A DNA stretch of 64,000 nt from Leptolyngbyaceae cyanobacterium (GTDB lineage Bacteria; Cyanobacteriota; Cyanobacteriia; Phormidesmidales; Phormidesmidaceae). The notes under the pieces were generated by a model that saw nothing but the letters and a program-made list of their open reading frames with translations, did no database searches and was not told the origin of the DNA. Numbering within the stretch: position 1 is the stretch's first letter; each line of letters begins with the position of its first letter. Below are positions 30,655 through 53,210 of this stretch, in pieces. A program made the position numbers and the translations under genes. The DNA lies in the NCBI GenBank assembly GCA_965263355.1, contig CBDHHL010000056.1, positions 288,001-352,000 on the forward strand. Reading direction: 5' to 3'.

Positions 30655-30662
30655 GGTGGTCC

Positions 30663-31085: not shown

Positions 31086-31224
31086 CTTTTTTTGTTATGT
31101 TAGCGAGTCCAGGTTGAGAAAACTTCCGTAATTCTGACGATTTGCATAAGCTGGGTGTTTGGAGTAAAACGGTAAGCACAGATGAAGTTCATTTGATGCA
31201 ATTTACTTGAGAGATTATTTAATT

Positions 31225-31434: not shown

Positions 31435-31496
31435 GAGTTTGAGCTACATTGACCCAGCTGTGTCCCTTGATTTTTTGACTTTTCGCTCTATCGCAT

Positions 31497-31530
31497 CTTA
31501 GAAGGCAGTTTGGATGTCCTGCCTTCTAAG
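31497..31530. terminator. Hairpin between convergent genes
   Basis: cttagaaggcag...ctgccttctaag, a 12-bp stem followed by a T-rich tract. Confidence 0.7.
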
Positions 31531-31636
31531 GTATTTTTATTTAAGAGGTGTTTTGACGTCTTATCCAAAATCCTGGTTATCTGCATCCGATATCGCAAGG
31601 CACCCACAAGGGACTGCCCCTACAAAATTGTTCACT

Positions 31637-33589: not shown

Positions 33590-33593
33590 GATG

Positions 33594-33857
33594 TTAATCT
33601 CCAGCTTGTAGCAAGTCTTGCAAATATTGAATTGCTTCAGTCGGAGATAATAGTACAAATTCTCCATCGCGGAGTAATTCATACTGTCCACCCCGATAGC
33701 CGTGGGCGGCAATTAACTTTTTCTCAACCGCTTGTGTGGCTAAGTTATGGAGTTGGTTAACGCTAATCGCTTCGAGTTCTAAATTCATTTTATGCTTTAA
33801 AGTCTCAAAATCAGGTTCGGCTGGTTGGTTACCATTAGGTTCGGAAATGTCACTCAT
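33594..33857 (-). CDS. Hypothetical protein in the CIS cap-ATPase operon
   Basis: 87-aa ORF spaced 6 nt and 4 nt from its neighbours. Confidence 0.7.
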   Translation of the reverse strand: MSDISEPNGNQPAEPDFETLKHKMNLELEAISVNQLHNLATQAVEKKLIAAHGYRGGQYELLRDGEFVLLSPTEAIQYLQDLLQAGD

Positions 33858-33863
33858 GACAAT

Positions 33864-35741: not shown

Positions 35742-37454
35742 ATGGCCTTAGACTACTTTGCGCCAGGGGTCTACGTCGAAGAGGTAGACCGAGGTAGTCG
35801 CCCAATTGAGGGCGTCAGCATGAGCGTTGCCGGATTTATCGGTTTCACCGAAGACGTACGAGGAGATGCTGAACTATTTGAACCCATGATGATTACTAAT
35901 TGGGCTCAATACTTAGAGTTTTTTGGCAAATCAGGCTCCGATGGATTTACCGATTTTGGGGCCTATCTCCCCTTTGCTGTGCAAGGTTGGTTTTTAAATG
36001 GTGGTGGTCGCTGTTGGGTAGTCAGTGTTGGCACTAAGCTACCGGGTTCGCCCAAACCTGCTGCTTCTGAAAATGCCACCAAACTGATTACCTCCAGTGG
36101 AAAACCTTCTCTTTCCTTCTATCTAAAGGCATCTGAATCTGAAGAAGAGGGCACCTTAGCGCTGCCATCCAGTGCTGGCCGATTAACGGTCAGTGTTATT
36201 GATGGAGCACCAAAGCCGTTGCCAGAGGATGCCGATGAGGATGCGGAAACCCCCATCAATAACGGTGAATATTTCACAGTGGTGGTCAGAAATGGAGATG
36301 AGGTTCTAGAACAGTATGATCACCTAACCATGAATCCAGAGGTGTTGTCTGAGGTAGCAGACTACGCCGTCACAATGTTAGAAGCCTCTGAATATGTGGT
36401 AATTGAAAATATCTCACAGTCTGGTCAGGCCCTCTCTCGTCGTCCTGCAAACGGTTCCTATGAGATTGCACCACCTCCCTATGTTGGTGAACCCGATCGA
36501 TTTAACCGCGATCTCCAAGGCAACCGCGACGATCGGACAGGCATTCAAGGTCTCTACGAGATTGACGAAGTGTCTATGATCGCCTGCCCAGACCTGTTAT
36601 TGGCCTATGAGAAAGGTCTAATCGATCTCGATCAGGTCCATGGTGTCATGGAAATGATGCTTAGCATGTGTGAGAATTCATTCCCCGGACCGGCGTATCG
36701 GATGGCAATTCTCGATCCACCGCCGGTAAAACCCGGTAAAAGCATGGACCCCGTGGAACCCAGTCGTCAGCGTCCAGCCGATGCTGCCAAATGGTTAACC
36801 ACGTTTAATCGTCGCTCTATGTTTGGGGCTACTTATTATCCTTGGATCAAAGTTGCTGACCCTCGCAACGGCGGTCGTCCCAAACTCGTTCCCCCGTCTG
36901 GCCACATGATGGGGATCTGGTGCCGTACTGATGAGTCTCGCGGTGTGTTTAAGGCCCCTGCCAACGAAACCCCTCGGGGTGTCATCGGCCTAGCGTACGA
37001 GACGAATATGCGTGAGCAAGAGTTGCTTAACCCCCTAGGCGTAAACTGTATCCGTAACTTCTCTAGCTACAACCGTGGCTTGAAGGTTTGGGGCGCTCGT
37101 ACCCTGGTTGAGCCCGACAATGTGCAGTGGCGTTACATTAGTGTACGACGACTACTGAGCTATATTGAGAAGTCCATTGAAATTGGTACTCAGTGGGTTG
37201 TCTTTGAGCCCAATGATCCTGATCTTTGGGCCAGAGTTAGCCGCACCGTCAGTAATTTTCTGGAGCGACTATGGCGGGATGGAGCCTTGTTTGGTACATC
37301 ACCTTCAGAAGCTTTCTACGTAAAATGTGATGGCGAACTAAATACCCACGACACCATTATGTTAGGTCGCTTGTATGTTGAAGTAGGTGTTTGTCCTGTA
37401 CGTCCGGCAGAATTTGTTATCTTCCGTATCAGTCAGTGGGCACCTAATCAGTAG
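35742..37454 (+). CDS. Contractile tail sheath protein
   Basis: APGVYVEEV, YYPWI, PPSGH, GVFKAPAN, WVVFEPND, PVRPAEFVIFRI. Confidence 0.97.
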   Translation: MALDYFAPGVYVEEVDRGSRPIEGVSMSVAGFIGFTEDVRGDAELFEPMMITNWAQYLEFFGKSGSDGFTDFGAYLPFAVQGWFLNGGGRCWVVSVGTKLPGSPKPAASENATKLITSSGKPSLSFYLKASESEEEGTLALPSSAGRLTVSVIDGAPKPLPEDADEDAETPINNGEYFTVVVRNGDEVLEQYDHLTMNPEVLSEVADYAVTMLEASEYVVIENISQSGQALSRRPANGSYEIAPPPYVGEPDRFNRDLQGNRDDRTGIQGLYEIDEVSMIACPDLLLAYEKGLIDLDQVHGVMEMMLSMCENSFPGPAYRMAILDPPPVKPGKSMDPVEPSRQRPADAAKWLTTFNRRSMFGATYYPWIKVADPRNGGRPKLVPPSGHMMGIWCRTDESRGVFKAPANETPRGVIGLAYETNMREQELLNPLGVNCIRNFSSYNRGLKVWGARTLVEPDNVQWRYISVRRLLSYIEKSIEIGTQWVVFEPNDPDLWARVSRTVSNFLERLWRDGALFGTSPSEAFYVKCDGELNTHDTIMLGRLYVEVGVCPVRPAEFVIFRISQWAPNQ

Positions 37455-37642
37455 AGGCGTTCTGTGGAACGCCTCTACGTAATCCCCTCCTCGGAGGGGT
37501 GCCTGAAAGGCGGGGTGGGCTCGACTGCTAGCGCTAACGGCTAACCCACCCCGGAGCCCCTCCCAGGAGGGGATGAGTTTTGGTCTACGTTTCTGGAATT
37601 CCTCTCAAGAGGAGAAGATTTTTGGTCTACGTTTTTAGAATT
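37451..37642. repeat. Composite repeat region between sheath and tube genes
   Basis: GTAGAGGCGTTC-TGTG-GAACGCCTCTAC hairpin; an element bounded by cccctcc..ggagggg hairpins; ~42-bp tandem duplication containing ttttggtctacgttt. Confidence 0.75.
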
Positions 37643-37658: not shown

Positions 37659-38156
37659 ATGGCTGATCTAATTAAGCCTATTGCCCCGAGTAGTTTTTAC
37701 CTGGAATTTGCCGGCGTGTGTGAAGGAGAACAGTCTGTTTTTAAAAGTGTTAATATTCCTGATTATGCGCCTAAAGTTCAGGGTGGACAACAGGCTATTG
37801 GCACCACCAAGGGTGGCAAAACTATGTGGCAAGTAAACTCAGCCGGTTTTGAAGGCCTGTTTAGCTTTGACTGTATCTGCATTGCTAGTGGCGATGGTGA
37901 CAGTACTAGCAAAAAACTCTATGAATGGTTTGAAAATTGTTTGCCAGCTTCAAATGGTGGCAAAAGCAGCTGGGGTGACAACAAAAAAGAAGGTAGCATC
38001 ACAGCCTACGACACCGATGGCAATGAGATTGCCAAGTGGCAATTTGTTGAAGCCTGGCCGTCCAAGTATAAGTGTGCCGACCTCGATGTAACAGCAGATG
38101 CTTACATTGAAGAGACATACACCATTACCTGCGAAAAGTTTAATCGCACCATGTAG
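37659..38156 (+). CDS. Tail tube protein (T4 gp19-like) 1
   Basis: LYEWF, GSITAYD, WQFVEAWPSKY, EETYTITCE. Confidence 0.9.
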   Translation: MADLIKPIAPSSFYLEFAGVCEGEQSVFKSVNIPDYAPKVQGGQQAIGTTKGGKTMWQVNSAGFEGLFSFDCICIASGDGDSTSKKLYEWFENCLPASNGGKSSWGDNKKEGSITAYDTDGNEIAKWQFVEAWPSKYKCADLDVTADAYIEETYTITCEKFNRTM

Positions 38157-38201
38157 TTTAACCCTTAGTTCAGTTAAGAGAACAATCAAGAGAACATAGC
38201 C

Positions 38202-38684
38202 ATGGTTCAATATTTAACCAATTCAAAATTCTACTTCGAAATTGATGGAGTGACAGGGCTATCCGTCAAAACCTGCACTGGTCCTGAGATTGAGCTAGAG
38301 GTGGCTGGTGGAGATGCAGCCATTGGTGTGACTAAAAATGCCATTACTCAAACCCAATCAACCATTGGTGGCGTGAAATATAACAGCACCATTACCCTTA
38401 CCTATGTGGCTGGTAATGAATCTGATCACCAAAAGTTGTCAGAATGGTATAACGATTGTCATCCAGACACCTTTTCAGGTGGTGGTTCTAAGGCAATGGA
38501 TAGCCGCAAAACGGGTTCCTTAGTGATCTATAATCCCAATGGTAGTGAGGCCATGCGCTATAACTTTATTGACCTGTTTCCAGGGACTAAAAAACAGATT
38601 GGTAGCTTGGCCGTTGACAGTGGTGGCAACCTTGCTGAAGATACGCTAGAGCTGTTTTTCACCCAGGTTGTGCGAGCAACCTAA
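38202..38684 (+). CDS. Tail tube protein (gp19-like) 2, divergent
   Basis: SKFYFEIDG, RKTGSLVIY, RYNFIDLFP, EDTLEL. Confidence 0.82.
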   Translation: MVQYLTNSKFYFEIDGVTGLSVKTCTGPEIELEVAGGDAAIGVTKNAITQTQSTIGGVKYNSTITLTYVAGNESDHQKLSEWYNDCHPDTFSGGGSKAMDSRKTGSLVIYNPNGSEAMRYNFIDLFPGTKKQIGSLAVDSGGNLAEDTLELFFTQVVRAT

Positions 38685-38692
38685 CCTAAGCC

Positions 38693-39220
38693 ATGATATT
38701 TCCTGAGATTTTAACCAAGGCTCGGTTTTATCTGGAACTCAGGTTGGATGGCAGTATTGATCTGATCGATGGTTACTTCATGGAGTGCTCTGGCTTCCAG
38801 CGATCGCAAGAGGTGATTGAGGTCTGTGAAGTAACCCCCCAGGTTTGGGGGCAGCAGGGACGTAGCCACGGCCACATTATCCGTTCTAAGATTCCGGGCA
38901 ACAGCTCTTTTACCAACATTACCCTCAAGCGAGGGTTAACGGTCTCCACGGCCTTTTGGGATTGGATGGATACCATTGGTGAAGGTAACTGGGCTGATCA
39001 GCGACGTAATGGCGCTCTGTGTATTTATGGACAATCGGGATTAGAACAGTTTCGATTTGAGTTCGCTGGAGCTTGGCCCGTTAGCTATAAGATTTCTGAT
39101 CTAGATGTGAAAGGGGCTGAGCATAATGTGGAAGAAGTTGAGATTGCAGTGGAATCTCTGAAGCGGGTTTCTGACAGCTGGATGCTTGGGGCGGCAGCGC
39201 TGGGCATGGCAATGAGTTAG
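38693..39220 (+). CDS. Tail tube protein (gp19-like) 3
   Basis: FMECSGF, KIPG, NITLKRGL, FWDW, AWPVSY. Confidence 0.92.
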   Translation: MIFPEILTKARFYLELRLDGSIDLIDGYFMECSGFQRSQEVIEVCEVTPQVWGQQGRSHGHIIRSKIPGNSSFTNITLKRGLTVSTAFWDWMDTIGEGNWADQRRNGALCIYGQSGLEQFRFEFAGAWPVSYKISDLDVKGAEHNVEEVEIAVESLKRVSDSWMLGAAALGMAMS

Positions 39221-39242
39221 TTGCTTTTTGATAAATAGAACA

Positions 39243-39677
39243 ATGACGGCTATTCAACTCAGTAATAATCTAGGCTTAGCACCGCCAAAAGTGACGCCTT
39301 CTATTCAACCCATCGATCCATCTTTGCCTAAATCTGTTGCAGATGTGGGTCCCCGCTTTGACCAGCAGGTTAATGCACCGTCTAGCCTGCAAACTCAGTT
39401 TGTTTTTGAGTTGCCGATAGGCTATCTAGACAATGCTGGGCAGCTCCATCGTCGAGGTGTGATGAGACTTGCACGCACCGCTGATGAGATTGAGCCGATG
39501 TCAGATATTCGGGTGCAGGCAAATGTTGCTTATGCCACAGTCATTATTCTGTCTCGGGTGATCTTGTCCCTAGGGAAGCTGCCTGATGTGAGTCCCATTG
39601 TGATTGAAGGGCTGTTTGCGGGGGACCTAAACTATCTACAAAACTTTTACAGAAAGATTAATGGTTTGACGGAGTAG
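39243..39677 (+). CDS. Tail assembly chaperone-like protein
   Basis: FELPIGYLD..GQLHRRGVMRLA, ILSRVI and DLNYLQNFYRKIN, typical of CIS loci. Confidence 0.8.
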   Translation: MTAIQLSNNLGLAPPKVTPSIQPIDPSLPKSVADVGPRFDQQVNAPSSLQTQFVFELPIGYLDNAGQLHRRGVMRLARTADEIEPMSDIRVQANVAYATVIILSRVILSLGKLPDVSPIVIEGLFAGDLNYLQNFYRKINGLTE

Positions 39678-39683
39678 ACACTT

Positions 39684-39947
39684 ATGACACAGTTGGATCC
39701 GTTAGCTGGGGCTGAGCAGGCGACGTTTTTGCCGCCCAGTGGAGTTGTTTCGAATCCAGCAGGATTTGTTGCTCCTGCAATTATGCAGAGTAATCATACG
39801 TTGGAGGTCAAGAAAATGATGGCTCAGATGGCTATGAAACTAGCCCATAATCCAACGGCAATGCAGCAGTTTTGCGATCGCATCCACCAACTGCTCCGTG
39901 ACGATATTCAAGCACGGCAAGAGCGTTCTTGGGGGAGACGTCACTAG
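39684..39947 (+). CDS. Small CIS protein
   Basis: 87 aa, in operon; C-terminal helix CDRIHQLLRDDIQARQER. Confidence 0.7.
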   Translation: MTQLDPLAGAEQATFLPPSGVVSNPAGFVAPAIMQSNHTLEVKKMMAQMAMKLAHNPTAMQQFCDRIHQLLRDDIQARQERSWGRRH

Positions 39948-40543
39948 TGTTTAGTGAACTATTAGCGGCTAATCAGCTAGCCACATCTGTTGGCGGCGAT
40001 CTATTTGGTGACAGTCGGTCGGCAGCATCCAATGCGGCTGACTATGTCACCAGTAACCGGTTTTATGTTGAGATTGAGAGTCAAATCACCGCCTGCTTTA
40101 CTGAATGTGGTGGGTTAGGGGTAACCATCAAAAAAGAAACCGTGCCAGAGGGTGGTCTCAACGACCAGCAACGGATTTTATTAGGAACACCTGAATTTTC
40201 TGACGTTACCCTTAAACGGGGTATTAGCGGTAATCAAGTGTTTTGGGATTGGCTAAATGCGTTGTTTCAACCGCGCACATCAGGCACTGGTCTCAAACAA
40301 CATCGCCGCAACATTAACATTTTAATTTTCAACCAGGCTGGGCAAACCCAACAGTGTTGGACGTTGATTGGAGCTGTTCCCGTAGGGTGGCAGGCCCCTT
40401 CTCTACAGGCAGACGGTAATGCAGTTGCCATTGAAGAACTAACATTGGCTTACGAAGGCTTAAATGTGACCTTTGGCAGTGGCGGCGGTGGTGCCACCAT
40501 GCTGACAGGGCGTTCTGATACTGGCTACTTTGAGAGTAAGTAA
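39929..40543 (+). CDS. Tail tube protein (gp19-like) 4
   Basis: RFYVEI, FTECGGL, EGGLN, VTLKRG, AVPVGW, IEELTLAYEG; exact start uncertain. Confidence 0.9.
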   Translation: MGETSLVFSELLAANQLATSVGGDLFGDSRSAASNAADYVTSNRFYVEIESQITACFTECGGLGVTIKKETVPEGGLNDQQRILLGTPEFSDVTLKRGISGNQVFWDWLNALFQPRTSGTGLKQHRRNINILIFNQAGQTQQCWTLIGAVPVGWQAPSLQADGNAVAIEELTLAYEGLNVTFGSGGGGATMLTGRSDTGYFESK

Positions 40544-40546: not shown

Positions 40547-43500
40547 ATGACAAAACAGCTGGGGCATACGTCTCCATTAGGGGCAGTTCACAACCTGGGC
40601 CATGGGGTACAGCACCGGTCGTTGGGGCCGTCATCATTAGCGATCTTAGATCTCAAAACGTTTTATCCCCATGGGTTTCCTAACGTTGCCTCTGAAAGCA
40701 CAAGTGCTTCAGAGAGTACAGTCGCTCGTAGTATAGATACGTCAGCCTCTTCTCAACAAGCTTCAACACCCAGCGTTAAGGAGTCTAAGTCTGCAACTGG
40801 TTCTGCAGGTCTAGGCTCATTTTTTCGTCGCAGTCTGCAGCGTTACTTTTCGCCAGGGTCAAGAGACCGTTCTGATGCTATCTCCCCTGCCTCCACTCAT
40901 CAGCCTGTTTCACAACAAGCCTCTCCAAACACAACATCCATACCAAACTTACAAGCAACTCCTGAAATAACGGTAACTACTAGTGACTCAATAGTAACTC
41001 CCACATCAGCAAGTGTTTCAACAGATAGTAATTCCTCTCATCAAGAGGTAAAACCCCCAACATCAGCTCAGCAACCGCCTACTGGGCTAAATTCAATCGA
41101 TATTAACCAATCTATTCAGAGTCTGCAAGAACAGTCTCCGATTCAACGAACTTCGGATAACTCAACCGGCTTAGGGTCCCATGACTCCAGTCAAACTGAT
41201 ATAGCGCAACAGTCTGCACGTAATCTGGCAGCCCCCCCCTTAAATACTCCCAATGCTATTCCGTCTACCTCTAATCAGGCTGACCTAATTCAAAGAAGAA
41301 TTGAGCCATCTCAATTATCAGACTCAAACTCTGCTGCAAGCTTAGGGAAGCCTACAGAAAGTATTCAGATATCGGCTAATAAAAGTCTTTCTGACACTGG
41401 ATCTATACAACATTCGAGCGATATTCAATCAGTTGTCAATTCGACTGCAGCAGTGCAACGGACAACTGATTCACTTCAGTCTCTTGAATCGTTGGCTGAA
41501 TCACCTCAAGTAGATCTCGTTCAGACTAACACGAATGAGCCGACAAACAATATTCATCCCGTTCCCAGCTCAGAAGAATCAGTTCAACGGGCAGCAGACT
41601 CTACTGATTTAACTTCATCAGTTCCCCATGAATCACATCAGATAAACACGGCTCAAGCTAATCAATTTAGTCAAAAAAATAGACCTCAGCCATCGGCGGA
41701 TTCTCTTTCTGAAACCGAGGGCATTCAACAATCGAGTAATAGTCAAACCGCTTTTAACTCAGGAGATATCGTTCAAAGAGCAGCTGAGTTACCCCAATCA
41801 ACAAGCTTATCTAGTGACGTAGGCCAACCACAAACACCTCAGTCTGTTGAACTTGATCAAACACATAGAGCACCGACTTCTAATAGAGAAAACGTCGTTC
41901 AAAGGACGGCTGAGTTAACCCAACCAACCAACACATCTAATAAGGTAGGCCAAACCGAAACGCCTCAGTCTGTTGAATTTTCTCAAATAGATACAATTCA
42001 GGTATCGACTAATCCCTTTTCTGACACTGAGACGCCTCAAAATTTGGGCAATGTTCAACCAATTACTTACTCAGTAGACACGGTTCAACGAGTTTCTGAT
42101 GATATATCTGAAAGAATTGAGGCAAATAGCCCATCCTACCCTGACACGACATCAACAACGAATACTCACGGCACCCTTCAACGAGTAACAAATGTCACAG
42201 ATGACTCACAAATCATCGAACCTGATAATGCGCCGTCTGTTCAACAATTACCCTCTGAACTAGCGACAACCGATATTATCGATACTGATGTCTCAGGCCC
42301 GAGTCAATCTCCGTTTAGCCCGCCTGAGTCCATTCAACGGGTAACCGAGGTCCCTCAGCGAGCAAACTCAGGTTCTGACGAAGTTAGGTCAGCCAATACA
42401 GCTCAACTATTACCTGATGGTTCTAACGCGAATAAGCCTACAAACAATATCCACCCCATTCCCAGCTCAGGAGAAGCAGTTCAACGGGCAGCAGACTTTA
42501 CTGATTTAACCCCGTCAATTTCCCATGAAGCACATCAGATAGGCACGACTCAGAGCAATCAATTTAGTCAAACAAATAGACCTCAGCCATCAGCCAATTC
42601 TTTTTCTGAAACTGAGGGTATTCAACAATCGAGTGAGGGTGAAACTGCTTTTAACTCAGAAAATATTGTTCAAAGAACAGCTGAGGTACCCCAATCAACA
42701 AACAGGTCTAATCAAGTAAGCGAAACAGAAACACCTCAGGCTATTGAATTTACTCAAAAAAACACACCTCAACAATCCGCCAATTCCCTTGCTAAAACTG
42801 AGGGCATTCAAAAGTCAAGTGAGGTTCAAACTGCCTTTGACCCAGGCAAAATTATTCAGAGGACAGCTGAGGTACCCCAGTCAACGAGTATATCTAATAA
42901 AGTAGGCCAGCCAGAAACACCTCAGGCTGTTGACTTTGCTCAAACAGATATGCCTCAGGTATCGACTAATCCGTTTTTTGAAAGTGAGATTCTTCAAAAA
43001 TCGAACAATGATCAACCGATTACTCACTCAGTAGACGCGGTTCAACGAGTTGCTGATATATCTGGAAAAATTGAGGCCAATAGCACATCTTCCCCTGACA
43101 CGACATCAACAACAAATACTCAAAGCACTCTTCAACGAGTAACAGATGTCATAGGCAGTTCACAAATCATCACCCCTGATAATGCGTCGTCAGTTCAACA
43201 ATTCCCCTCCGAATTAGCCACAACCGATATTCCCCGTACTGATATCTCAGCCCCAAGTCAATCTTCATTTAGCCCGGCTGAGTCCATTCAACGGGTAACC
43301 GAAGTCTCGCAGCTATCAAACTCAGGTTCTGACGAATCCAGGGCAGCTAATACAGCTCAATTATTACCTGATTTTTCTACCGCGAATGAGCCTACAACCA
43401 ATCTTCAACCCATTTCCAGCTCAGAAGAATCAGTTCAACGGACAACTTACTTTACTGACTTAACGTCATCAGTGCCCTATGGAGCATATCAGATAGACAC

Positions 43501-46500
43501 AGCTCAGGCTAGTCAATTTAGTCAAACAAATATACCTCAGTCATCAGCAAATTCTTTTTCTGAACCTGAGGATATTCAACAACCGAGTGATGGTCAAACC
43601 GTTTTTAACTCAGGAGAAATTATTCAAAGGACGGCTGAATCAACTCAGTCAACACCTGAGGATATTCAACAATCGAGTGATGGTCAAACCGTTTTCAACT
43701 CAGGAGAAATTATTCAAAGGACGGCTGAATTAACCCAGTCAACAAGTACGTCTAATGAAATAGGCCAAACAGACACACCTCAGGCTAATCAATTTGCTCA
43801 AACAAATACAGCTCAGCGATCCGCTAACTCCCGTGCCAAAACTGAAGGTATTCAACAATCGCGTGATGGTCAAACAACGTCTAACGTAGAAAACGTCGTT
43901 CAAAGGACAGCTGAGTTAACCCAGCTAACAAACACGTCTAATGAAATAGGCCACACAGACACACCTCAATTATCGACTAATCCTTTTTCTGAAAGTAAGC
44001 CCCTTCAAAATCCTAACAATGTTCAGCCGATTACTCACTCAATAGACGCGGTTCAACGAGTACCCGATACTCACAGCACTCTCCAACGAGTAACGGATGT
44101 CACAGATAATCCAAAAATTATTGAACCTGATAATGCGCCGTCAGTTCAACAATTATCGTCCGAATTAGCTACAACCGATATTACCCATACTGATGTCTTA
44201 GCCCCGAGTCAATTTAGTCAAACAACTATACCTCAGCCATCAGCAAATTCTCTTTCCAAAACTGAGGAAATTCAAAAGTCAAGCGATGGTCAAACCGATT
44301 TTAACTCAGGAGATATCGTTCAAAGGACGGTTGAATTAACCCAATCAACAAGCACGTTTAATGAAGTAAACCAACCAGAACTACTTCAAGCTAGTCAATT
44401 TGCTCAAACAAATATAGTTCAGCAATCCGCCAACTCTCTTGCTAAAACTGAGAATATTCAAAAATCGAGTGGGGTTCAAACGACGTCTAACGTAGAAAAC
44501 GCCGTTCAAAGGATAGCTGAGTTACCCCAGCCAACAAACACGTCTAACGCAGTAGATAAAACTGAAACGCCTCAGTCTGTTGAATTTGATCTCACACACA
44601 CAGCTCAATCATTAACTAATTCTGTTTCTGAAAGTGGACCTCTTCAAAAATCGAACAATGTTCAACCGATTACTCACTCAGTAAACACGGTTCAACGAGT
44701 TGCTAATGTGTCTGAAGTAATTGAAGCTGATAGTCCCTCCTACGCTGACGCGACATCAACAACGAATACTCATAGTCCGCTTCAACGAGTAACGGATGTC
44801 ACAGATAATCCACAACCCATAGAATCCGATAATGCTCTGTCAGCTCAACAATTATCCTCCGACTTAACCACAACTGATATTCCCCACACTCAAACTGATA
44901 CGCTAATCTCCCGCACTTCGAATCAACCAATCATTACTCATCCGTCCCATGATAATGTCTTAAACGCTTCGTTAACCGATGTCTCATTTCCGAGTCAGTC
45001 TCCGTTTAACCTATCTGAGTCAATTCAACGTGACGTCGACGCCTCTCAGCTATCAAACTCAGGTTCTGACGAATCTAGGGCAGCTAAGACAGTTCAACCA
45101 TTATCTGATTTTTCTACCGCGAATGAGCCCACAACCGATATTCAATCCGTTTTTAGCTCAGGGGAATCAGTTCAACGGGCAACAGACTTTACTGATTTAA
45201 CTCCGTCAATTTCTCATGAGTCTTATCAGATAGGCACGACTCAGACTAATCAATTTAGTCAAACAACTATACCTCAGCCATCAGAAAATTCTCTTTCTGG
45301 AACTAAGAGCATTCAAAAGTCGATTGACGATCAAACCGCTTTTAACTCAGGAGATATCGTTCAAAGGATAGCTGAGTTACCCCAATCAACGAGCACATCT
45401 AATAAAGTAAGCCAAATAGACGCACCTCAGTCTGTTGACTTTACTCAAACAAATACAACTCCGCTCCCCGTTAGCTCCCCTGCTAAAACTAAGAAAATTC
45501 AGAAGTCAAGTGAGGTTCAAACTGCCCCTGACTCAGGTGAAATCATTCAGAGGACAGCTGAGTTACCCCAGCCAACGAGCACATCTAATAGAGTAGGTCA
45601 ACCAGAAACGCCTCAGTCTGCTGAATTTACTCAAACACACATACCTCAGTTATCGACTAATCCTGTTTCTGAGAGTGAAACTCTTCAAAGTTCGAACAAT
45701 GTTCAACCGATTACTCACTCAAGAGACAGGGTTCAACGAGTCACTGATGTGTCTGGAGCCGTTAAGGCGGATAGCCCATCTTACACTGACACGACATCAA
45801 CAACGAATACTCATAGCACGCTTCAACGAGTAACAGATGTCACAGATAATCCACAAATTATTGAATCCGATAACGCTCCGCCAGAACAACAATTACCTTC
45901 TAACTCAGCCACAAACGATATTCCCCGTACTGATGTCTTAGTCCCGAATCAAACGCCATTTAAACCACCTGAGTCAATTCAACGGGTAACTGCAACCTCT
46001 CAGCTATCAAACTCAGGTTCTGACGAATTTGGGGCAGCTAATGCCGCTCAACTATCGCCTGATGGTCCTACCGAAGAAGCAGTGCAACGGGTAGCAAACT
46101 TAACTGACTTAGTTTCACCAGTTTCCTATGAGTCTTATCAAATAGGCACGACTCAGGCTAATCAATTTACTCAAACAAACATACCTCAGCCATCAGCGAA
46201 TTCTCTTTCTAAAGCTGAGGATATTCAAAAGTCGAGTCAAGGGCAAGTTTCCTCTACCTCAGGAGAAATCGTGCAAAGGATGGCTGAGTCCATCCAGTCA
46301 ACAAATACGTCTGATGAATTAGACCAAACAGAACTACCTCAGATTCCTGAATCGATACAAACACACACAACTCAGTTATCGACTAACTCTGTTTCTGAAA
46401 GTTATCTTCAATCAGCCACTCACTCAGTAGAGATCGTTCAAAAGACAGCTGAGTTAACCCAATCAACGAATATACCCAATAAAGTAAGCCAACCAGAAAC

Positions 46501-48037
46501 GTCTCAGTCTGTTGAATTTTCCCAAACAGATATCGCAGATGAGCCACAAATCATTGAACCTGATAACCACATTCCGTCAGCTCAGCAATTACCCTCCAAA
46601 TTAGCCACAACCGATGTTCCTTATAACGATGTCTTAGTCCCAATTCAATCTCAGTTTAGCCCGACCGAGTCCATTCAATGGGTAACCGAAGCCTCTCAGC
46701 TATCGAATTCAGGTTCTGATCAATTTGGGGCAGCTAATGCCCCTCAACTATTACCTGATGGTTCTAACGCGAATGAGTCTACAAACAACATTCACCCCAT
46801 TCCCAGCGCAGACGAATCAGTTCAACGGGCAGCAGACTTTACTGATTTAACTCCGTCAATTTCTCATGAGTCCTATCAGATAGATACAACTCAGGCTAAT
46901 CAATTTAGTCAAACAAATATACCTCAGCCATCAGCGAATTCTTTTTCTGAAACTAAGATTATTCAAACATCGAGTGAGGTTCAATCCACCTTTAACCCAG
47001 TAGACATTGTTCAAAATGCTTCTAACTCAGCTGAGCTAGTTCAATCGACAGCCGAGTCAACAACATCAATCTCAATTGAGACCGATCAGCCAACTACATT
47101 AGTTTCCAACCAGCCAGATATCGTTCGGCTTAACAATGTGGCTGAGAGCGAGGCTATACAAAAATTAAGTGATAGCCAATCTGTTTCTGGCCCAACACAC
47201 TTAGCAAGACCAGTACAACGTTCATCGGATTCAACTCATACGGACATATTAGGCCTTTCCATCAGCAAACCGCTGCCGAGGGTACTCAGATCGCTAAGTG
47301 TGTTGAAACCATTACCCTCATTGCAGGGCAAGGGCTTAAAACTCGGTGAGCAAGTAGCTTCAGAATCCACCCCCTCACAACCAACCATTCAACGTCAAGA
47401 ATCCGACCACATTCCAAAAGCATGGTCTAATCTAGAATCATTAGTTGCAGGTCTAACGGGTAGCAACTCACAGAGCGTATCGACGTCTGAGAAATCCACA
47501 AGCATTGATTCAGATACTGTTACACCACCGTCAGATACCAGTTCGGTCAACATTCAACGCCAGCCTTCTGACGTTAATAATGACTCTGCACGGTTGTCAA
47601 ACAGTTCTAGCTCGACCACCCAGTCTAATTTAGAAGACTTAACTACCCATTTGCCAAACAATTCATTCGAGCATGACTCTACAACGTCACAACCGGCTCC
47701 AGAGTCCAATCATTCTCAGCAATCCACTCAACGCTCCCCTGTCTCGAAGGCACCGCCAACTCCCCAGCAAGCATCTCACACTGTCAAAGTTGCTAAACCA
47801 GCTACAGTCACAGTTCAACGCCAGGTAGCAAGCTCAGTATCCACAACAAAACCAACGATCATTCAAGCTTGTAAAGACACCTCACCTAGCACTGATTCTG
47901 CTGAGGCTGATGAACAAACAGATGACAATCATAACTATAGTCAGTATCTAGAGCTATTAGCCCAGGAAGTCTATAGCCTCTTACGACAGCGACTCTCTCT
48001 GGAACAAGAACGACGAGGGTCTAAATACCCTAGATAG
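40547..48037 (+). CDS. Giant S/T/Q/P-rich repeat protein, candidate tape measure or lumenal protein
   Basis: 2496 aa; about 40 [VIL]QR motifs by manual count; C-terminal LELLAQEVYSLLRQRLSLEQERRG; lies between tube and tube-initiator genes. Confidence 0.75.
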   Translation: MTKQLGHTSPLGAVHNLGHGVQHRSLGPSSLAILDLKTFYPHGFPNVASESTSASESTVARSIDTSASSQQASTPSVKESKSATGSAGLGSFFRRSLQRYFSPGSRDRSDAISPASTHQPVSQQASPNTTSIPNLQATPEITVTTSDSIVTPTSASVSTDSNSSHQEVKPPTSAQQPPTGLNSIDINQSIQSLQEQSPIQRTSDNSTGLGSHDSSQTDIAQQSARNLAAPPLNTPNAIPSTSNQADLIQRRIEPSQLSDSNSAASLGKPTESIQISANKSLSDTGSIQHSSDIQSVVNSTAAVQRTTDSLQSLESLAESPQVDLVQTNTNEPTNNIHPVPSSEESVQRAADSTDLTSSVPHESHQINTAQANQFSQKNRPQPSADSLSETEGIQQSSNSQTAFNSGDIVQRAAELPQSTSLSSDVGQPQTPQSVELDQTHRAPTSNRENVVQRTAELTQPTNTSNKVGQTETPQSVEFSQIDTIQVSTNPFSDTETPQNLGNVQPITYSVDTVQRVSDDISERIEANSPSYPDTTSTTNTHGTLQRVTNVTDDSQIIEPDNAPSVQQLPSELATTDIIDTDVSGPSQSPFSPPESIQRVTEVPQRANSGSDEVRSANTAQLLPDGSNANKPTNNIHPIPSSGEAVQRAADFTDLTPSISHEAHQIGTTQSNQFSQTNRPQPSANSFSETEGIQQSSEGETAFNSENIVQRTAEVPQSTNRSNQVSETETPQAIEFTQKNTPQQSANSLAKTEGIQKSSEVQTAFDPGKIIQRTAEVPQSTSISNKVGQPETPQAVDFAQTDMPQVSTNPFFESEILQKSNNDQPITHSVDAVQRVADISGKIEANSTSSPDTTSTTNTQSTLQRVTDVIGSSQIITPDNASSVQQFPSELATTDIPRTDISAPSQSSFSPAESIQRVTEVSQLSNSGSDESRAANTAQLLPDFSTANEPTTNLQPISSSEESVQRTTYFTDLTSSVPYGAYQIDTAQASQFSQTNIPQSSANSFSEPEDIQQPSDGQTVFNSGEIIQRTAESTQSTPEDIQQSSDGQTVFNSGEIIQRTAELTQSTSTSNEIGQTDTPQANQFAQTNTAQRSANSRAKTEGIQQSRDGQTTSNVENVVQRTAELTQLTNTSNEIGHTDTPQLSTNPFSESKPLQNPNNVQPITHSIDAVQRVPDTHSTLQRVTDVTDNPKIIEPDNAPSVQQLSSELATTDITHTDVLAPSQFSQTTIPQPSANSLSKTEEIQKSSDGQTDFNSGDIVQRTVELTQSTSTFNEVNQPELLQASQFAQTNIVQQSANSLAKTENIQKSSGVQTTSNVENAVQRIAELPQPTNTSNAVDKTETPQSVEFDLTHTAQSLTNSVSESGPLQKSNNVQPITHSVNTVQRVANVSEVIEADSPSYADATSTTNTHSPLQRVTDVTDNPQPIESDNALSAQQLSSDLTTTDIPHTQTDTLISRTSNQPIITHPSHDNVLNASLTDVSFPSQSPFNLSESIQRDVDASQLSNSGSDESRAAKTVQPLSDFSTANEPTTDIQSVFSSGESVQRATDFTDLTPSISHESYQIGTTQTNQFSQTTIPQPSENSLSGTKSIQKSIDDQTAFNSGDIVQRIAELPQSTSTSNKVSQIDAPQSVDFTQTNTTPLPVSSPAKTKKIQKSSEVQTAPDSGEIIQRTAELPQPTSTSNRVGQPETPQSAEFTQTHIPQLSTNPVSESETLQSSNNVQPITHSRDRVQRVTDVSGAVKADSPSYTDTTSTTNTHSTLQRVTDVTDNPQIIESDNAPPEQQLPSNSATNDIPRTDVLVPNQTPFKPPESIQRVTATSQLSNSGSDEFGAANAAQLSPDGPTEEAVQRVANLTDLVSPVSYESYQIGTTQANQFTQTNIPQPSANSLSKAEDIQKSSQGQVSSTSGEIVQRMAESIQSTNTSDELDQTELPQIPESIQTHTTQLSTNSVSESYLQSATHSVEIVQKTAELTQSTNIPNKVSQPETSQSVEFSQTDIADEPQIIEPDNHIPSAQQLPSKLATTDVPYNDVLVPIQSQFSPTESIQWVTEASQLSNSGSDQFGAANAPQLLPDGSNANESTNNIHPIPSADESVQRAADFTDLTPSISHESYQIDTTQANQFSQTNIPQPSANSFSETKIIQTSSEVQSTFNPVDIVQNASNSAELVQSTAESTTSISIETDQPTTLVSNQPDIVRLNNVAESEAIQKLSDSQSVSGPTHLARPVQRSSDSTHTDILGLSISKPLPRVLRSLSVLKPLPSLQGKGLKLGEQVASESTPSQPTIQRQESDHIPKAWSNLESLVAGLTGSNSQSVSTSEKSTSIDSDTVTPPSDTSSVNIQRQPSDVNNDSARLSNSSSSTTQSNLEDLTTHLPNNSFEHDSTTSQPAPESNHSQQSTQRSPVSKAPPTPQQASHTVKVAKPATVTVQRQVASSVSTTKPTIIQACKDTSPSTDSAEADEQTDDNHNYSQYLELLAQEVYSLLRQRLSLEQERRGSKYPR

Positions 48038-48090: not shown

Positions 48091-48576
48091 ATGAGCACAT
48101 TTGTTAAAGCTAAACTTATTGCCCAAGGAGGCGGTAGCAACATCGAGTTTATGTTTAACCCAACTGAGTTGAGTTTTAGTCGAAAGATGAATCTCAACTC
48201 CTGTGGTGGAGCCCGAACAGATGATGGTGTTCCAAAGGTTAGCTTTGGGTCACCAGAACCTTACAGTATCACCGTTGGTGGCTTGGTTTTTGACACGTAC
48301 GAAACGGGCGAGAATGTTCTCGATAAGCATATCGAATATTTTCGACAGGCCGTCGAGTTTTTAGATAGCCAAGAACGTCCACCCATGTATATCTTTACCT
48401 GGGGCAAGCAAGAATACTTACGGTGCTTTGTACAGTCACTTTCCTATAAGCTCACCATGTTTTTGCCGGATGGTACACCTGTGCGAGCAACGGTAGATAT
48501 CACCTTGCAAGAAATCGGTGAGACCAGCGGTTCGGGTAATACAGGGACGCCCAGTCGAGGAAGTAGTAGTCGATAG
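48091..48576 (+). CDS. CIS tube initiator (Afp7-like N-domain, no LysM)
   Basis: FMFNPTEL, LVFDTYE, RPP..FTWG, TMFLPDGTPVRA. Confidence 0.9.
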   Translation: MSTFVKAKLIAQGGGSNIEFMFNPTELSFSRKMNLNSCGGARTDDGVPKVSFGSPEPYSITVGGLVFDTYETGENVLDKHIEYFRQAVEFLDSQERPPMYIFTWGKQEYLRCFVQSLSYKLTMFLPDGTPVRATVDITLQEIGETSGSGNTGTPSRGSSSR

Positions 48577-48742: not shown

Positions 48743-50752
48743 ATGGCTGCCACCAAGTTTGTCGCGACGCCTACCCTGAAGATCGACGGCAAAGCTGCCT
48801 CTAGTGAATTAATAGAGGATATTTTACAGATAGTGGTGGAAGAAAGCTTACATCTGCCAGGCATGTTTACTCTAGTAATTCAAAATGATTACTATGCTGG
48901 CGAAGAGAATCATCAAGTTTGGAAGCACGAGAAGCTATTTGAGATTGGTAAATCGATAGAAATTGGCTTCGCAGCCAGTACAACTGAGTCAGATGAGTTT
49001 GATGAAGAAAATAAAGGTAATGTGATTAAGGGTGATATCACAGCGATTGAAACTCATTTTACCAGTGAAGCCCAGGCTCCAATTATCATTCGCGGTTATG
49101 ATGCCTCCCATCGATTACACCGAGGCCGTCATAGTCGCTCATTTCAAAATAAAACTGATGCCGATATTGTTAAATCTATTGCCTCAGAGGTGGGTATTTC
49201 CATCGGTAAAGTAGATTCGACCGGTGGCCCCTATGGTTATGGAGATATTGGGGGGTCTAGTGGTTATGTGTTTCAACAAAACCAGACCAATATGGAGTTT
49301 TTGCGAGAACGAGCTGCTCGCCATGGCTTTGAACTCTTTGTTCAAGATGGCAAGCTTAACTTTCGTCAACCAACCAAAGACAGCACCCTGTCTCTAGAGT
49401 GGCTACAGGATATCCACAGCTTTCGGGTGCGGGTGAGTAGTGCCGATCAGGTGAAAAGTGTAGAGGTGCGTGGCTGGGACTATAGTCGCAAAGAGGTTAT
49501 TGCCGAAACAATTAGCAAAGCGAAACAAGTTCTGACCGATACGGATAATGGCGATGGCAGTAAGACCGTCAGTGTTTTTGACGGTAAGCCAAAAACACCG
49601 ACCCTGGTGATGGTGGACCAACCAATTTCCCAGGCGAAAGAGGCCCAAGCCATGGCACAGGCTCTTTATGACGAAGTGGGTGGCGAGTTTGTTCAAGCAG
49701 ACGCCCGCAGTGAGGGAGACCCGTCTATCCGTCCGGGACGGGTGGTGAAGCTAACGGGTATGGGTAGCTATAGCGGCAGCTACTATGTCACTGAAACTCG
49801 CCATGTATTGCATGAGCGCATCTATAGAACTGAATTTTCGGTGCGGGGACTGCGCGGGGGCGATTTACTGCAAACATTAGAGAGTAAGAATACTTTGCAG
49901 CCAGGACAAACCCTAATGGTAGGGATTGTTGCTGATAATCAAGATCCGAAAGGTTGGGGGCGGGTGCGGGTAAAACTGCCCACCTTAACGGAAGAGCACA
50001 TGAGTAATTGGGCACGGGTAGTATCCGTAGGGGCAGGACCAACCCGAGGTGTGGACTGGCTGCCTGAAATTAATGATGAAGTACTGGTGGCCTTTGAACA
50101 TGGAGATATTCATCGGCCTTATATTTTAGGTGGGGTATGGAATGGTAAGGATGCTCCACCGGAAAAAATAGAGGAGACAATCGTCAATGGCAAGGTGCGT
50201 TTGAGAACATTGAAGACTCGGTTGGGCCATACGCTGCAATTTGTGGAAGAAGACAAGGGGGATAGTAAGAAGGGGGTTTATTTAACAACCGTCGATAAGC
50301 ATCAGCTGCATCTGAATGATACTGAAAAGTATGCGGAGCTAAAGACTAAGGATGGTCATCAACTGATGTTGGATGACAAAAATAAGAAGATTGATCTAAA
50401 AACTAAGGGTGGTCATCAGATCTCGATGGATGACAGTGGGAAAAAGGTGGATATTATTTCTACTGGCAGTTTGAATGCGAAATCAGGGAAAAGCGGCAAA
50501 AGCGAGAAAATTAATATTAATGGTGGTGAGATCACGCTGACAGGGACAACAAAAATTACGCTGAAAGTGGGCAGTAGCCAAATTGTTTTGAGTAATGCCG
50601 GCGTGAATATTTCGGGAACACAGGTGAATGTGAAGGCCAATGCCACGGCAAAAATGGAAGGCGCAATGGTGGATGTAAAGGGACAGGCGACGGTAAATGT
50701 GCAGTGTTCGGGGATGACAAAAGTAGCGGGAAGCTTGTTAAAGCTAAATTAA
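48743..50752 (+). CDS. vgrG: VgrG-like hub/spike protein
   Basis: gp27-like N-terminus (QTNMEFLRERA), OB-fold DPKGWGRVRV...LPEINDEVLVAFEHGD and beta-helix repeats. Confidence 0.95.
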   Translation: MAATKFVATPTLKIDGKAASSELIEDILQIVVEESLHLPGMFTLVIQNDYYAGEENHQVWKHEKLFEIGKSIEIGFAASTTESDEFDEENKGNVIKGDITAIETHFTSEAQAPIIIRGYDASHRLHRGRHSRSFQNKTDADIVKSIASEVGISIGKVDSTGGPYGYGDIGGSSGYVFQQNQTNMEFLRERAARHGFELFVQDGKLNFRQPTKDSTLSLEWLQDIHSFRVRVSSADQVKSVEVRGWDYSRKEVIAETISKAKQVLTDTDNGDGSKTVSVFDGKPKTPTLVMVDQPISQAKEAQAMAQALYDEVGGEFVQADARSEGDPSIRPGRVVKLTGMGSYSGSYYVTETRHVLHERIYRTEFSVRGLRGGDLLQTLESKNTLQPGQTLMVGIVADNQDPKGWGRVRVKLPTLTEEHMSNWARVVSVGAGPTRGVDWLPEINDEVLVAFEHGDIHRPYILGGVWNGKDAPPEKIEETIVNGKVRLRTLKTRLGHTLQFVEEDKGDSKKGVYLTTVDKHQLHLNDTEKYAELKTKDGHQLMLDDKNKKIDLKTKGGHQISMDDSGKKVDIISTGSLNAKSGKSGKSEKININGGEITLTGTTKITLKVGSSQIVLSNAGVNISGTQVNVKANATAKMEGAMVDVKGQATVNVQCSGMTKVAGSLLKLN

Positions 50753-50764: not shown

Positions 50765-51157
50765 ATGGGAATGCAAGTTGTCGCTGGGGCCATGCTTAAA
50801 TGTCCTTTTGGTGTTGCCCCCAGTGTCTTAAACGTTTTACCAAAAGGCCCACCCGTTATGGCATCTGGTCCCCTAGCTGCCACCATTATGGACTATGCGC
50901 CCGTCGTCAATATTCCGCCGTTTGGCATGTGTAGTTCTTTAGCAAATCCCACCGTTGCCAGTGCTACGGCGGCGGCCTTAGGGGTACTTACCCCCATGCC
51001 CTGTTTACCGGTTATTCCAGCCCCCTGGGCACCCGGTTCACCCACTGTACACATTAACAACTTTCCAGCGCTTAATAACAGTTCAAAATGTATGTGTACT
51101 TGGGGCGGTGTGATCACAATTGTTAACCCTGGTCAGTTTACGGTTCAGATTCCATAA
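50765..51157 (+). CDS. DUF4280 PAAR-like spike tip
   Basis: GAMLKCPFG, NIPPFGMCSS, PCLP..PW, CTWGGVI. Confidence 0.92.
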   Translation: MGMQVVAGAMLKCPFGVAPSVLNVLPKGPPVMASGPLAATIMDYAPVVNIPPFGMCSSLANPTVASATAAALGVLTPMPCLPVIPAPWAPGSPTVHINNFPALNNSSKCMCTWGGVITIVNPGQFTVQIP

Positions 51158-51235: not shown

Positions 51236-52039
51236 ATGACCAATGCTTTCCCAAACACTCCTCAGAAACAACTCAAGCTTCCAGGCATTTTGGGGGGATT
51301 AGGCCCTTTGGCCCATATTGAGTTTGAACAACGCTTGCTACACCATAGCTCGCGTCGGGGTGCACAGTGCGATCAGGATCATCCTAATTGGATAGTTCTC
51401 AGTGCTGCGTCAACCCCAGATCGAACTCAAAGTTTACTGAGAGAAGGACCAGACTGTGTCCCCAACTTGATACGTGGTGCGTGCCAGCTAGAGGCCATGG
51501 GAGCTGACTTCTTGATAGTGCCTTGTAACACTGCCCACGGGTTTTACCATACGGTACAGACCCAACTAGGCATTCCCTGGCTGCATATGATGGATACAAC
51601 AGCAGCTTATATTGCCCGTTATTTTCCCAATGTGCGGCAGTTGGGAGTGTTGGCAACGGATGGAACGTTGCGATCGCAACTCTACACCCCCAGTCTCGCC
51701 CAATATGGCATCTCTCCGATTTCACCCCCCTTGAAATCGCCTATTCAGCATCGCGTTATGCAAGCCATTTACTCGCCAGACTGGGGCATTAAAGCCACGG
51801 GTGCCTGGGTTTCAGACATTGCCCTGATTGAACTTATCGTCGCGTCTCGCTGGTTAGCCGCCCAAGGCGCAGAGCTGATCATCGCCGGATGTACCGAAAT
51901 ATCCATCGGGTTAACCAAACTTAGTCAGCTACCCATTAACTGGGTCGACCCCCTTGATGTCATGGCCAATCTTACCCTTGACCTTGTTTACGGTATTACT
52001 CCAGTTCAACCTGTTGTGTCAGCCAAACGCTTCCCATGA
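51236..52039 (+). CDS. PLP-independent Asp/Glu-family amino acid racemase
   Basis: GILGGLGPLA, PDRT, and both catalytic Cys motifs VPCNTAH and AGCTEI. Confidence 0.92.
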   Translation: MTNAFPNTPQKQLKLPGILGGLGPLAHIEFEQRLLHHSSRRGAQCDQDHPNWIVLSAASTPDRTQSLLREGPDCVPNLIRGACQLEAMGADFLIVPCNTAHGFYHTVQTQLGIPWLHMMDTTAAYIARYFPNVRQLGVLATDGTLRSQLYTPSLAQYGISPISPPLKSPIQHRVMQAIYSPDWGIKATGAWVSDIALIELIVASRWLAAQGAELIIAGCTEISIGLTKLSQLPINWVDPLDVMANLTLDLVYGITPVQPVVSAKRFP

Positions 52040-53139
52040 TTGATATATCATCCCGACGACGACTTCAATGGATGTCGCGCTTTGTTATTTTAAGCCTTTT
52101 GGTTGGCCTGTTTCAGCTGACTGTTGCAGTTACCCCGACCCTGGCTAGTACATTGAGTACCCTGCAATTAGGCAGTGAGGGAGAGGCGGTTGAACAGCTA
52201 CAAACACAGTTACAAACGCTGGGATACTTGGACTCAGAGATTAATGGGGTTTATAACCACTCTACCCAACTCGCTGTTCAAGCCTTTCAAAGGGACCGTA
52301 ATATGTTGTGGGCCGATGGCATAGCTGGTGAGGAAACTCAGCGTCAGCTTGCGGGTCAAGGAGAGGATTTATACATTTCCCGTACAGAAATGTCCGCTGA
52401 TATTGAGCGTATTCTCAATCGAGGTAAATTAATTGTTGCTTTACTGGGGGCTGACAATGCTCCCTTCTTTATGGGAGATAATCCACCAGCGGGATTAGAC
52501 ATCAAAATTTCACAGGGATTGGCTGATGCCTTGGGGGTGGATTTAGAATTTAACCGTTCGGCAGATACGTTTAATGATGTCGTTGACCAAGTATACCAGC
52601 TGAAGGCCGATATTGCCATTTCTAAACTAAGTCGCACCCTAAGCCGAGCAAAACGAGTACAATTCTCTCGGCCTTATGTCACCATGCGTCAGGGGTTGTT
52701 GGTAAATCGGGTGCAGTTAGCTGAACAAACTGAAGGAAATCAGGTGATTGAAGCCATTCGTAACTTTAGCGGCAACGTCGGTGTGATTCAAGGCTCATCC
52801 TACGTTGGTTTTATCAAACAAAAATTTCCTAAAGCGACCATTAAAGAATATCCTACCTGGGATGACATTGTAGACGCTGTTATTAACGGTGATATTCAGG
52901 CAGCCTACCGCGATGAACTCGAAGTTAAAAAGATTATTTATAAAAATCCTGACGCTGCCCTCAGGTTACAAACAATCGCCTTAAATGACACCCAAGATCA
53001 AATTGCGATGGCTCTACCCTGGGATAGTCGTCATTTACGAGACTTTGTTAATCAGTATTTAGAAACCTTTAGTTTCGACTATACAGCTGATGCAGTTCTA
53101 GAAGAATATGCCGATTATTTGCAGCTGAAAAAAGAATAA
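52036..53139 (+). CDS. Peptidoglycan-binding domain fused to a family 3 amino-acid solute-binding protein
   Basis: Signal peptide; LQLGSEGEAVEQLQ...AVQAFQ...DGIAGEET; GLDIKIS, LSRTLSRAKRVQFSRPY. Confidence 0.88.
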   Translation: MIDISSRRRLQWMSRFVILSLLVGLFQLTVAVTPTLASTLSTLQLGSEGEAVEQLQTQLQTLGYLDSEINGVYNHSTQLAVQAFQRDRNMLWADGIAGEETQRQLAGQGEDLYISRTEMSADIERILNRGKLIVALLGADNAPFFMGDNPPAGLDIKISQGLADALGVDLEFNRSADTFNDVVDQVYQLKADIAISKLSRTLSRAKRVQFSRPYVTMRQGLLVNRVQLAEQTEGNQVIEAIRNFSGNVGVIQGSSYVGFIKQKFPKATIKEYPTWDDIVDAVINGDIQAAYRDELEVKKIIYKNPDAALRLQTIALNDTQDQIAMALPWDSRHLRDFVNQYLETFSFDYTADAVLEEYADYLQLKKE

Positions 53140-53210
53140 CCACACGCCTTTTTAGGGGGCACGGCAGTGCGCGCCTAGGATTTCATTACTTATATTCCTC
53201 TAAAGTCGTT

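Follow-up and report, generated by a model that had tools for sequence, protein, structure and literature searches.

What does an open reading frame of 2496 codons, low in complexity and full of repeats, do in the middle of a phage-tail-like apparatus? The question is raised by a 64,000-nucleotide stretch of DNA from a Leptolyngbyaceae cyanobacterium (the window in what follows), in which a Pfam scan of 49 proteins detects a contractile injection system (CIS). Its genes follow one another in the order sheath, three tubes, a 149-aa gene, an 87-aa gene, a Cis5-like tube, the giant gene, Cis7, VgrG and DUF4280 (PF14107), the product of which we take to have a PAAR-like role. Apart from the giant gene, the CIS genes of the window are the following:

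26092 to 35141, reverse strand: divergent CIS genes for a Pvc16 cap, an AAA ATPase, gp25, baseplate J (TIGR02243), a P2-I-like wedge and a Cis13-like protein (profile matches; the Cis13-like match, at 44 bits, is below its 370-bit cut-off)
35742 to 37454, forward strand: sheath (PF17482, PF04984)
37659 to 39220, forward strand: three gp19 tube paralogs (PF06841)
39228 to 39677, forward strand: tail assembly chaperone-like protein of 149 aa (phrog_508, E 0.001; L001 ortholog, E 1.7e-11)
39684 to 39947, forward strand: 87-aa protein with a paralogous helix at its end, CDRIHQLLRDD...QER (motif present before Cis5 in 30 of 42 loci)
39929 to 40543, forward strand: tube initiator, Cis5/Cis1b-like, gp19 (PF06841 and PDB matches; role assigned by position)
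48091 to 48576, forward strand: Cis7-like tube initiator (PF19266)
48743 to 50752, forward strand: VgrG-like hub and spike in a single ORF (best PDB match 9GTR, 178 bits; tCIS All3320, 92 bits)
50765 to 51157, forward strand: DUF4280 PAAR-like tip (PF14107)

Judged from the gene content of the window alone, the system fits the subtype IId type of lineage II. This subtype is characterised, in the passages covered of PMC6899500, by a single fused Afp8 and a single Afp11, without Afp14 or Afp6; among the 49 proteins of the window there are one fused VgrG and one TIGR02243 baseplate protein, and neither Afp14 nor DUF5908. The cytoplasmic IId systems of S. coelicolor (CISSc), Roseiflexus and Deinococcus likewise have a single fused VgrG and a single TIGR02243 protein and lack Afp14 and DUF5908, and the VgrG of the window was best matched to the S. 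coelicolor spike (9GTR). The window differs from these systems in its four gp19 paralogs, its DUF4280 tip, its Cis13-like gene and its small helix paralog. Its nearest Cis7 relatives, among the best 80 of 234, are those of Adonisia turfae (95%) and Leptolyngbya sp. PCC 7375 (94%).

Some further features of the locus can be recorded here. The four gp19 tube paralogs are spread across positions 37659-40543, and chaperone-like genes number one here and two in loci L001 and L112. A 42-bp tandem duplication (37559-37642) lies between the sheath and the first tube gene. After the Cis13-like gene come 862-aa Ig-like and 740-aa WD40 proteins (21261-26125, reverse strand), possible accessory or cargo proteins, while directly after the tip gene (51236-54539) we find an Asp/Glu racemase, a PG-binding solute-binding protein and a dicarboxylate symporter. 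The helix paralog of the 87-aa gene (39684-39947) is also present in two Deinococcus loci and could join a mixed trimer.

The giant gene itself lies between the Cis5-like gene and Cis7, all of its features being on the forward strand:

40547 to 48037, forward strand: giant low-complexity protein, candidate disordered tape measure (composition and repeats; no Pfam or NCBIfam family)
40547 to 40684, forward strand: conserved N-terminal segment in which PLG recurs, with an SLxILD..F motif (by-eye reading of 21 N-termini)
41582 to 47008, forward strand: nested repeat region, modules A to F, predicted disordered (repeat analysis; AlphaFold2 single-sequence model of one unit)
43564 to 43744, forward strand: recent in-frame tandem duplication of 90 bp (86 of 90 bases identical)
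47924 to 48013, forward strand: C-terminal amphipathic helix, residues 2460-2489, predicted hub anchor (pLDDT 82-94; alignments A2 and A4)

An earlier note, made from the sequence alone, had described this 7.5-kb frame as open, and it is uninterrupted over its 2496 codons. The protein is rich in S (16%), T (12%) and Q (11%), P and N are also abundant, aromatics make up 3%, and the net charge is -151. The roughly 40 [VIL]QR motifs claimed for it are exactly 40 on counting (22 VQR, 12 IQR and 6 LQR) against 1.4 expected from composition, and 12 other proteins of the window hold 5 over 6880 residues. Six module types, A to F (63, 62, 62, 30, 52 and 49 aa), add up to a super-repeat of 318 aa and are arranged in the order ACCDEF-ABCDEF-A-BC-E-BCDEF-ABCDEF-A(degenerate)-A, with six A-type starts and five to six cycles, two of them complete. 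This agrees with the super-repeat of about 318 aa, occurring roughly six times with in-frame gains and losses, that had been proposed, and the 90-bp duplication expected near 43563-43740 was found as listed above. DNA identity between module copies of equal length is 71-85%, and in-frame offsets separate 1663 of the 1670 repeated 11-mers. Between module copies, the motif codons have a pN of 0.034 and a pS of 0.18, and the spacers a pN of 0.197 and a pS of 0.281 (dN/dS 0.65 overall, 1.15 in module F). The motif codons are under purifying selection and the spacers are barely constrained, as had been suggested by the observation that QR is kept while the spacers drift, and the giant ORF with its motifs is a real, selected feature.

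The spacer ratios, together with the fact that no single contig spans the gene, are what could be said for an assembly artefact or a neutral repeat expansion, an explanation that we consider extremely improbable. The copies are merely 71-85% alike, the repeats stay in frame, and orthologs of similar length exist in many genomes, which already disfavours it; on the same grounds we set aside misassembly of the repeats, one of the outcomes that the earlier note had named as fatal to its own proposal. Contigs from two samples of one study cover 30 of 30 bins of the gene, the longest of them reaching less than the whole gene, and in the two samples 21 of 22 and 26 of 27 contigs are at least 99% alike; this agreement is weak support, since the samples may include the window's own source. 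Runs X4 and X5 cover small shares (9/30 and 11/30 bins) and no conclusion rests on either. The orthologs of 1900-2520 aa present in many other genomes give stronger assembly support than the contigs do.

When the whole 2496-aa protein was compared with Pfam and NCBIfam, no family was matched. AlphaFold2 single-sequence models were obtained for one 318-aa repeat unit (pLDDT 43.9, with 295 of 318 residues below 50) and for the last 405 residues (coil, pLDDT about 44, except the helix at 2460-2489), in total 723 of 2496 residues modelled without an alignment, a setting in which low confidence is not proof of disorder. The giant protein is thus predicted to be disordered save for its C-terminal helix, and its composition agrees with this; an alpha-helical middle region such as that of Afp14/Cis14 is absent from the models of these 723 residues. 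The helix, which the earlier note overlooked along with the cross-phylum family to be described below, is the most conserved part of the giant protein, and its hallmark is LAxE(I/V)YxxLRxRLxxExER.G. PDB sequence searches with the last 99 aa and with alignments A2 and A4 gave nothing significant and matched no solved structure, Pfam searches of 42 helix members gave chance matches alone (E 0.02 or worse), and PHROGs did not match the last 48 aa. A complex model of two copies of the hub with three copies of the helix scored 0.53, the best of three controls reaching 0.00; this is a weak prediction and gives no interface. Of 157 solved pairs 116 attain such a mark, and of 215 mismatched pairs 2, with 18 of the solved pairs and both mismatches at 0.60 or lower. 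Contact agreement in these runs was at least 48% and partner pLDDT at least 57. The score may reflect likeness to solved plug-hub structures.

How widespread is such a gene? Our cyanobacterial survey covered the best 80 of 234 Cis7 relatives, the gene before Cis7 being read by eye, and the helix ends this gene in 70 of these 80 loci; the other ten comprise one degenerate gene, one truncated gene, one at a contig edge and seven loci with an unrelated gene. In seven Nostocales loci (L044-L046, L048-L051) an unrelated 163-aa gene precedes Cis7 and the locus seems split. Complete slot proteins, counted after exclusion of proteins that run off a contig end or lack a Cis5 nearby and of L004-L006 and L085, number 43, including that of the window and three from plasmid loci; they are 232-3245 aa long with a median of 2042, and six are of 232-325 aa. 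Among the 14 closest complete orthologs (window included) 12 are of 1903-2520 aa, and alignment identity in the five of them compared is just 21-29%. The modules of the window occur about once in P0002 and L008 and are absent from 12 other orthologs (L007, which has an assembly gap, was left out). The 318-aa super-repeat is private to the lineage of the window, and among its closest relatives length is kept while sequence is replaced. The earlier proposal of a recombination-tunable protein holds as far as in-frame gains and losses go; with the super-repeat private to one lineage and total length conserved among relatives, the repeat history resembles turnover with length held constant more than it does tuning.

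The helix also occurs beyond these loci. In a second cyanobacterial CIS type it ends the gene after Cis5 (475-821 aa), forms of 136-325 aa also exist, and the slot genes of Deinococcus, Paenibacillus, Paraburkholderia and haloarchaea have it at their end as well. Four Streptomyces plasmid loci have, after chaperone genes, a P/A/G-rich ORF of 1009-1381 aa with a similar terminal helix, this likeness being judged by eye, as L134 alone of the four was scored by profile A4 (7.2 bits). The long gene comes directly after a chaperone gene and a small gene of DUF6760 type in 4 of 4 Streptomyces plasmid loci of this type; in two loci of another type (L006, L137) the slot is taken by a 70-aa gene. In Halogeometricum borinquense DSM 11551 the ORF is of 2192 aa and is annotated as 182 aa, and in four public records, two from Streptomyces and those of Halogeometricum and Haloferax, the slot ORF lacks an annotation or has one for its last 178-255 aa alone (L134:9261-13406, L136:9974-13681, L127:8398-14976, L132:1851-8819). 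An eCIS-core (DUF4157) domain is present in the Deinococcus orthologs; in the window protein, Pfam and NCBIfam detect no eCIS-core, effector or toxic C-terminal domain. The ESM Atlas holds unnamed clusters alone, commonest in Cyanobacteriota and Chloroflexota, a Cis7 scan of viral contigs gave no match, and the text passages covered by our search of the open literature name neither the family nor the motif. Searches with NF053767 and NF053768 turned up another lineage-II CIS type in place of the Anabaena tCIS.

Individual members show some peculiarities. A tandem double terminal helix is found in some slot proteins (L113:3514-3924; P0023, P0026, P0027). The 3245-aa ortholog (L039:231-9968) matches PG_binding_1 with a summed E of 2.7e-26 and no single stretch passing, perhaps a repeat artefact. 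The D. grandis ORF (L133:970-4749, 1259 aa) begins with tube-like sequence, by fusion, deletion or assembly error, and was removed from the length range. Several cyanobacterial genomes, G001, G002 and G005 among them, have two to four helix matches, pointing to more than one locus, with differing slot lengths. In three Deinococcus loci (L128, L129, L005) a 1600-aa FHA Ser/Thr kinase gene lies directly before Cis7.

The [VIL]QR motif is distributed unevenly over the family. At least 10 copies are present in 25 of 43 cyanobacterial orthologs and at most 2 in 17 of 43, L039 and L042 have 58-60 [VIL]QP in place of QR, and IQP or IQA is used in Nostocales orthologs. The Streptomyces orthologs contain 20 (L134, against 0.5 expected), 9, 7 and 0 (L135), and the Deinococcus-type proteins 0-4; motif flanks are unconserved and spacing is irregular, with quartiles of 47/63/92 aa. 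The shared core is thus a hydrophobic residue followed by Gln, selected in many lineages against very different backgrounds, yet dispensable in some. The idea that QR is a universal binding or cleavage motif does not survive this comparison, and our guess is that hydrophobic-Gln-X is a repeated weak docking site. Proline at such a position blocks most proteases, and a role as a cut site fits the proline variants poorly. It could still be argued that [VIL]QR sites, and not residues, are what is counted, with every site holding one tube ring or the ATPase, or else marking a cut by which peptides are set free, given the purifying selection on motif codons, the recurrence of the motif in P/A/G-rich Streptomyces orthologs and its abundance in the 25 cyanobacterial ones. 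We regard this as improbable in view of the 17 orthologs that nearly lack the motif, the [VIL]QP proteins, the irregular spacing, the absence of the motif from L135 and the low counts in Deinococcus-type proteins although the particles are 365 nm long.

Gene position offers another line of evidence. Phage tape measures lie after their chaperones and before the tube initiator and hub genes, and the giant gene likewise follows the tail assembly chaperone-like gene and precedes the Cis7 tube initiator and the VgrG hub. Because of this slot, the chaperone gene, the conserved C-terminal helix and a match of lengths at the level of clades (see below), we think that the giant protein is probably a disordered tape measure whose terminal helix anchors it in the spike hub. 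The tape measure or lumenal scaffold of the earlier note thus gains four supports and keeps the status of a candidate. By sequence, the protein appears to belong to neither the Afp14 nor the Cis6 family, and Pfam and NCBIfam reveal no homology of the window protein to Afp14 (CIS_TMP). Like Afp14/Alg14 (Cis14) and phage tape measures it is long, variable in length and preceded by a chaperone gene; their C-terminal end is at the baseplate, as is predicted here, and nm per residue would be similar at clade level. It differs from them in being predicted disordered and acidic, not alpha-helical, in having no sequence match and in preceding Cis7 and VgrG. Binding of phage tape measures to the baseplate via the C-terminus is described in the part covered of bioRxiv 2026.05.27.728243. 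Two large CIS-associated proteins linked to tape measures, Tme of S. davawensis and Sle1 of S. lividans, were compared by description only: they have transmembrane helices, coiled coils and a toxic domain at the C-terminus, whereas the window protein has no such domain and ends in the family helix. In passages on Tme it is about 70% disordered (PMC11126660) and, as a cargo protein, carries DUF4157.

The same slot, between Cis5 and Cis7, is exactly that of Cis6. DUF5908, which corresponds to Cis6/Alg6/Pvc6 (PDB 7B5H, E 1e-16; 7AEF; 9QGM), is found there in four loci out of eight, those read on the correct strand, and Cis6/Alg6/Pvc6 are trimeric helices in the hub cavity, required for assembly, according to parts of PMC8894135, PMC12546770 and PMC8894136. 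The terminal helix might then do the job of Cis6 and nucleate baseplate assembly, the arm being a lumenal filler, cargo scaffold or tether and length being set otherwise. The plugs (Cis6/Alg6/Pvc6/Afp6; DUF5908, PF19265) share with the giant protein the slot, an amphipathic C-terminal helix ending near an ER pair and, as a weak prediction for the latter, hub binding; a weak hhalign alignment places LAQEVYSLL in register with CVEQVLKIL (probability 17%, E 0.0015), and the short forms of 136-325 aa, the DUF4157 of the Deinococcus members and the Cis6 loop that extends into the lumen, as a passage of PMC8894136 has it, point the same way. The hhalign comparisons of terminal helix and plug are not significant (2.4% and 17%), PF19265 matches none of 42 helix members, and plugs are of 50-67 aa with an N-terminal strand (MPxEIxEL), whereas the helix of the window is preceded by a 2450-aa arm. 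A plug alone would leave the conservation of length within clades amid sequence turnover, the match with particle length and the chaperone gene unexplained, and the window protein has no effector domain detectable by Pfam or NCBIfam; we consider this alternative unlikely, but worth keeping in sight.

A tape measure is precisely what these systems are reported to lack. Lineage II is described in the passages covered of PMC6899500, the founding survey, as lacking Afp14 and mostly Afp6 but having conserved unknown genes, and the survey asks whether such genes replace the tape measure. CISSc particles are uniformly 268 nm with no tape measure known (passages of PMC12237407), and its absence is stated for Streptomyces (S. 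lividans included) and haloarchaeal (H. borinquense) systems in parts of PMC10066040, PMC12237407, PMC10286715 and PMC11566945. The Streptomyces slot proteins (1009-1381 aa, four loci) set against 268 nm give 0.19-0.27 nm/aa, and eight named Deinococcus proteins (1506-1831 aa) against the 365+/-39 nm of D. aquatilis give 0.20-0.24 nm/aa, strains being unmatched in both; four unnamed Deinococcus matches span 1473-2002 aa. For H. borinquense DSM 11551, 2192 aa against about 550 nm extended give about 0.25 nm/aa, a strain-matched value with a borrowed contraction ratio: the contracted sheath, 220+/-16 nm in the passages covered, one legend calling sheath lengths heterogeneous, was scaled by the Roseiflexus ratio 86.7/217, if that ratio holds. 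Known CIS tape measures have, in the part of the literature covered, a slope of 0.2156 nm/residue, and Alg14 0.229. The slot proteins of three clades would thus give about 0.22-0.25 nm/residue, near known CIS tape measures, a match of three points that may be due to chance. If the giant protein is a tape measure, the particle of the window is predicted to be unusually long, 540-620 nm at 0.216-0.25 nm/aa, and the six short orthologs (232-325 aa) would imply particles of 50-80 nm. An equal rise per residue lacks a clear physical reason, since the chain is predicted to be coil and known rulers are helical.

Several observations count against a tape measure. Known CIS tape measures are mostly alpha-helical (passages of bioRxiv 2026.05.27.728243), which speaks against a ruler of coil, and the CISSc model contains neither a plug nor a ruler chain (part of PMC12237407). 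In the passages covered, the CISSc lumen empties on deletion of sco4256-58, so that it is explained by other cargo, and the tubes of H. borinquense have no lumen density. The DUF4157 of Deinococcus would be a mark of cargo, and the wide cyanobacterial range (232-3245 aa) also counts against. SCO4249, which we infer from gene order to occupy the giant-gene slot, is represented by one peptide in crude CISSc preparations, again in the passages covered. That the solved CISSc, as partly covered, shows no matching density, and that the composition is that of an intrinsically disordered protein, would also suit an appendage or condensate scaffold outside the lumen, tethered by the helix and positioning or bundling particles in the cell. 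Such a role seems very improbable for a gene that keeps one place among the core genes for tube and hub in two domains of life, and the weak hub-binding prediction argues against it as well.

In the tape-measure reading, which we prefer, the conserved C-terminal helix would sit in the VgrG hub cavity as a trimer, to which the 87-aa paralog may contribute, and the long, predicted disordered chain would run up the tube lumen and set the extent of tube and sheath polymerisation, at about 0.22-0.25 nm per residue. More speculatively, the hydrophobic-Gln-X motifs could be repeated weak docking sites for the chaperone or the tube subunits, and module recombination could alter length with the frame kept.

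Beyond the window, lineage-II CIS of bacteria and archaea may share an overlooked family of rulers, disordered tape measures with a hub-plugging terminal helix, although we would stop just short of calling this probable. If this is true, the fixed particle lengths seen in Streptomyces, Deinococcus and Halogeometricum have an explanation, the Cis6 plug may be all that is left of an ancestral tape measure, namely its tip, and cyanobacterial injectors are predicted to range from about 60 to more than 700 nm, retuned via in-frame repeat recombination. A candidate can now be named for the tape measure reported missing, in a slot whose ORF gene callers often miss, and the question of length is testable in S. 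coelicolor through a few in-frame edits. The nested super-repeat is a local embellishment, and what matters more is the family that crosses phyla, with a prediction of length that can be tested. A non-helical ruler would revise ideas on the measurement of tail length, and particle length sets the cargo capacity of engineered injectors.
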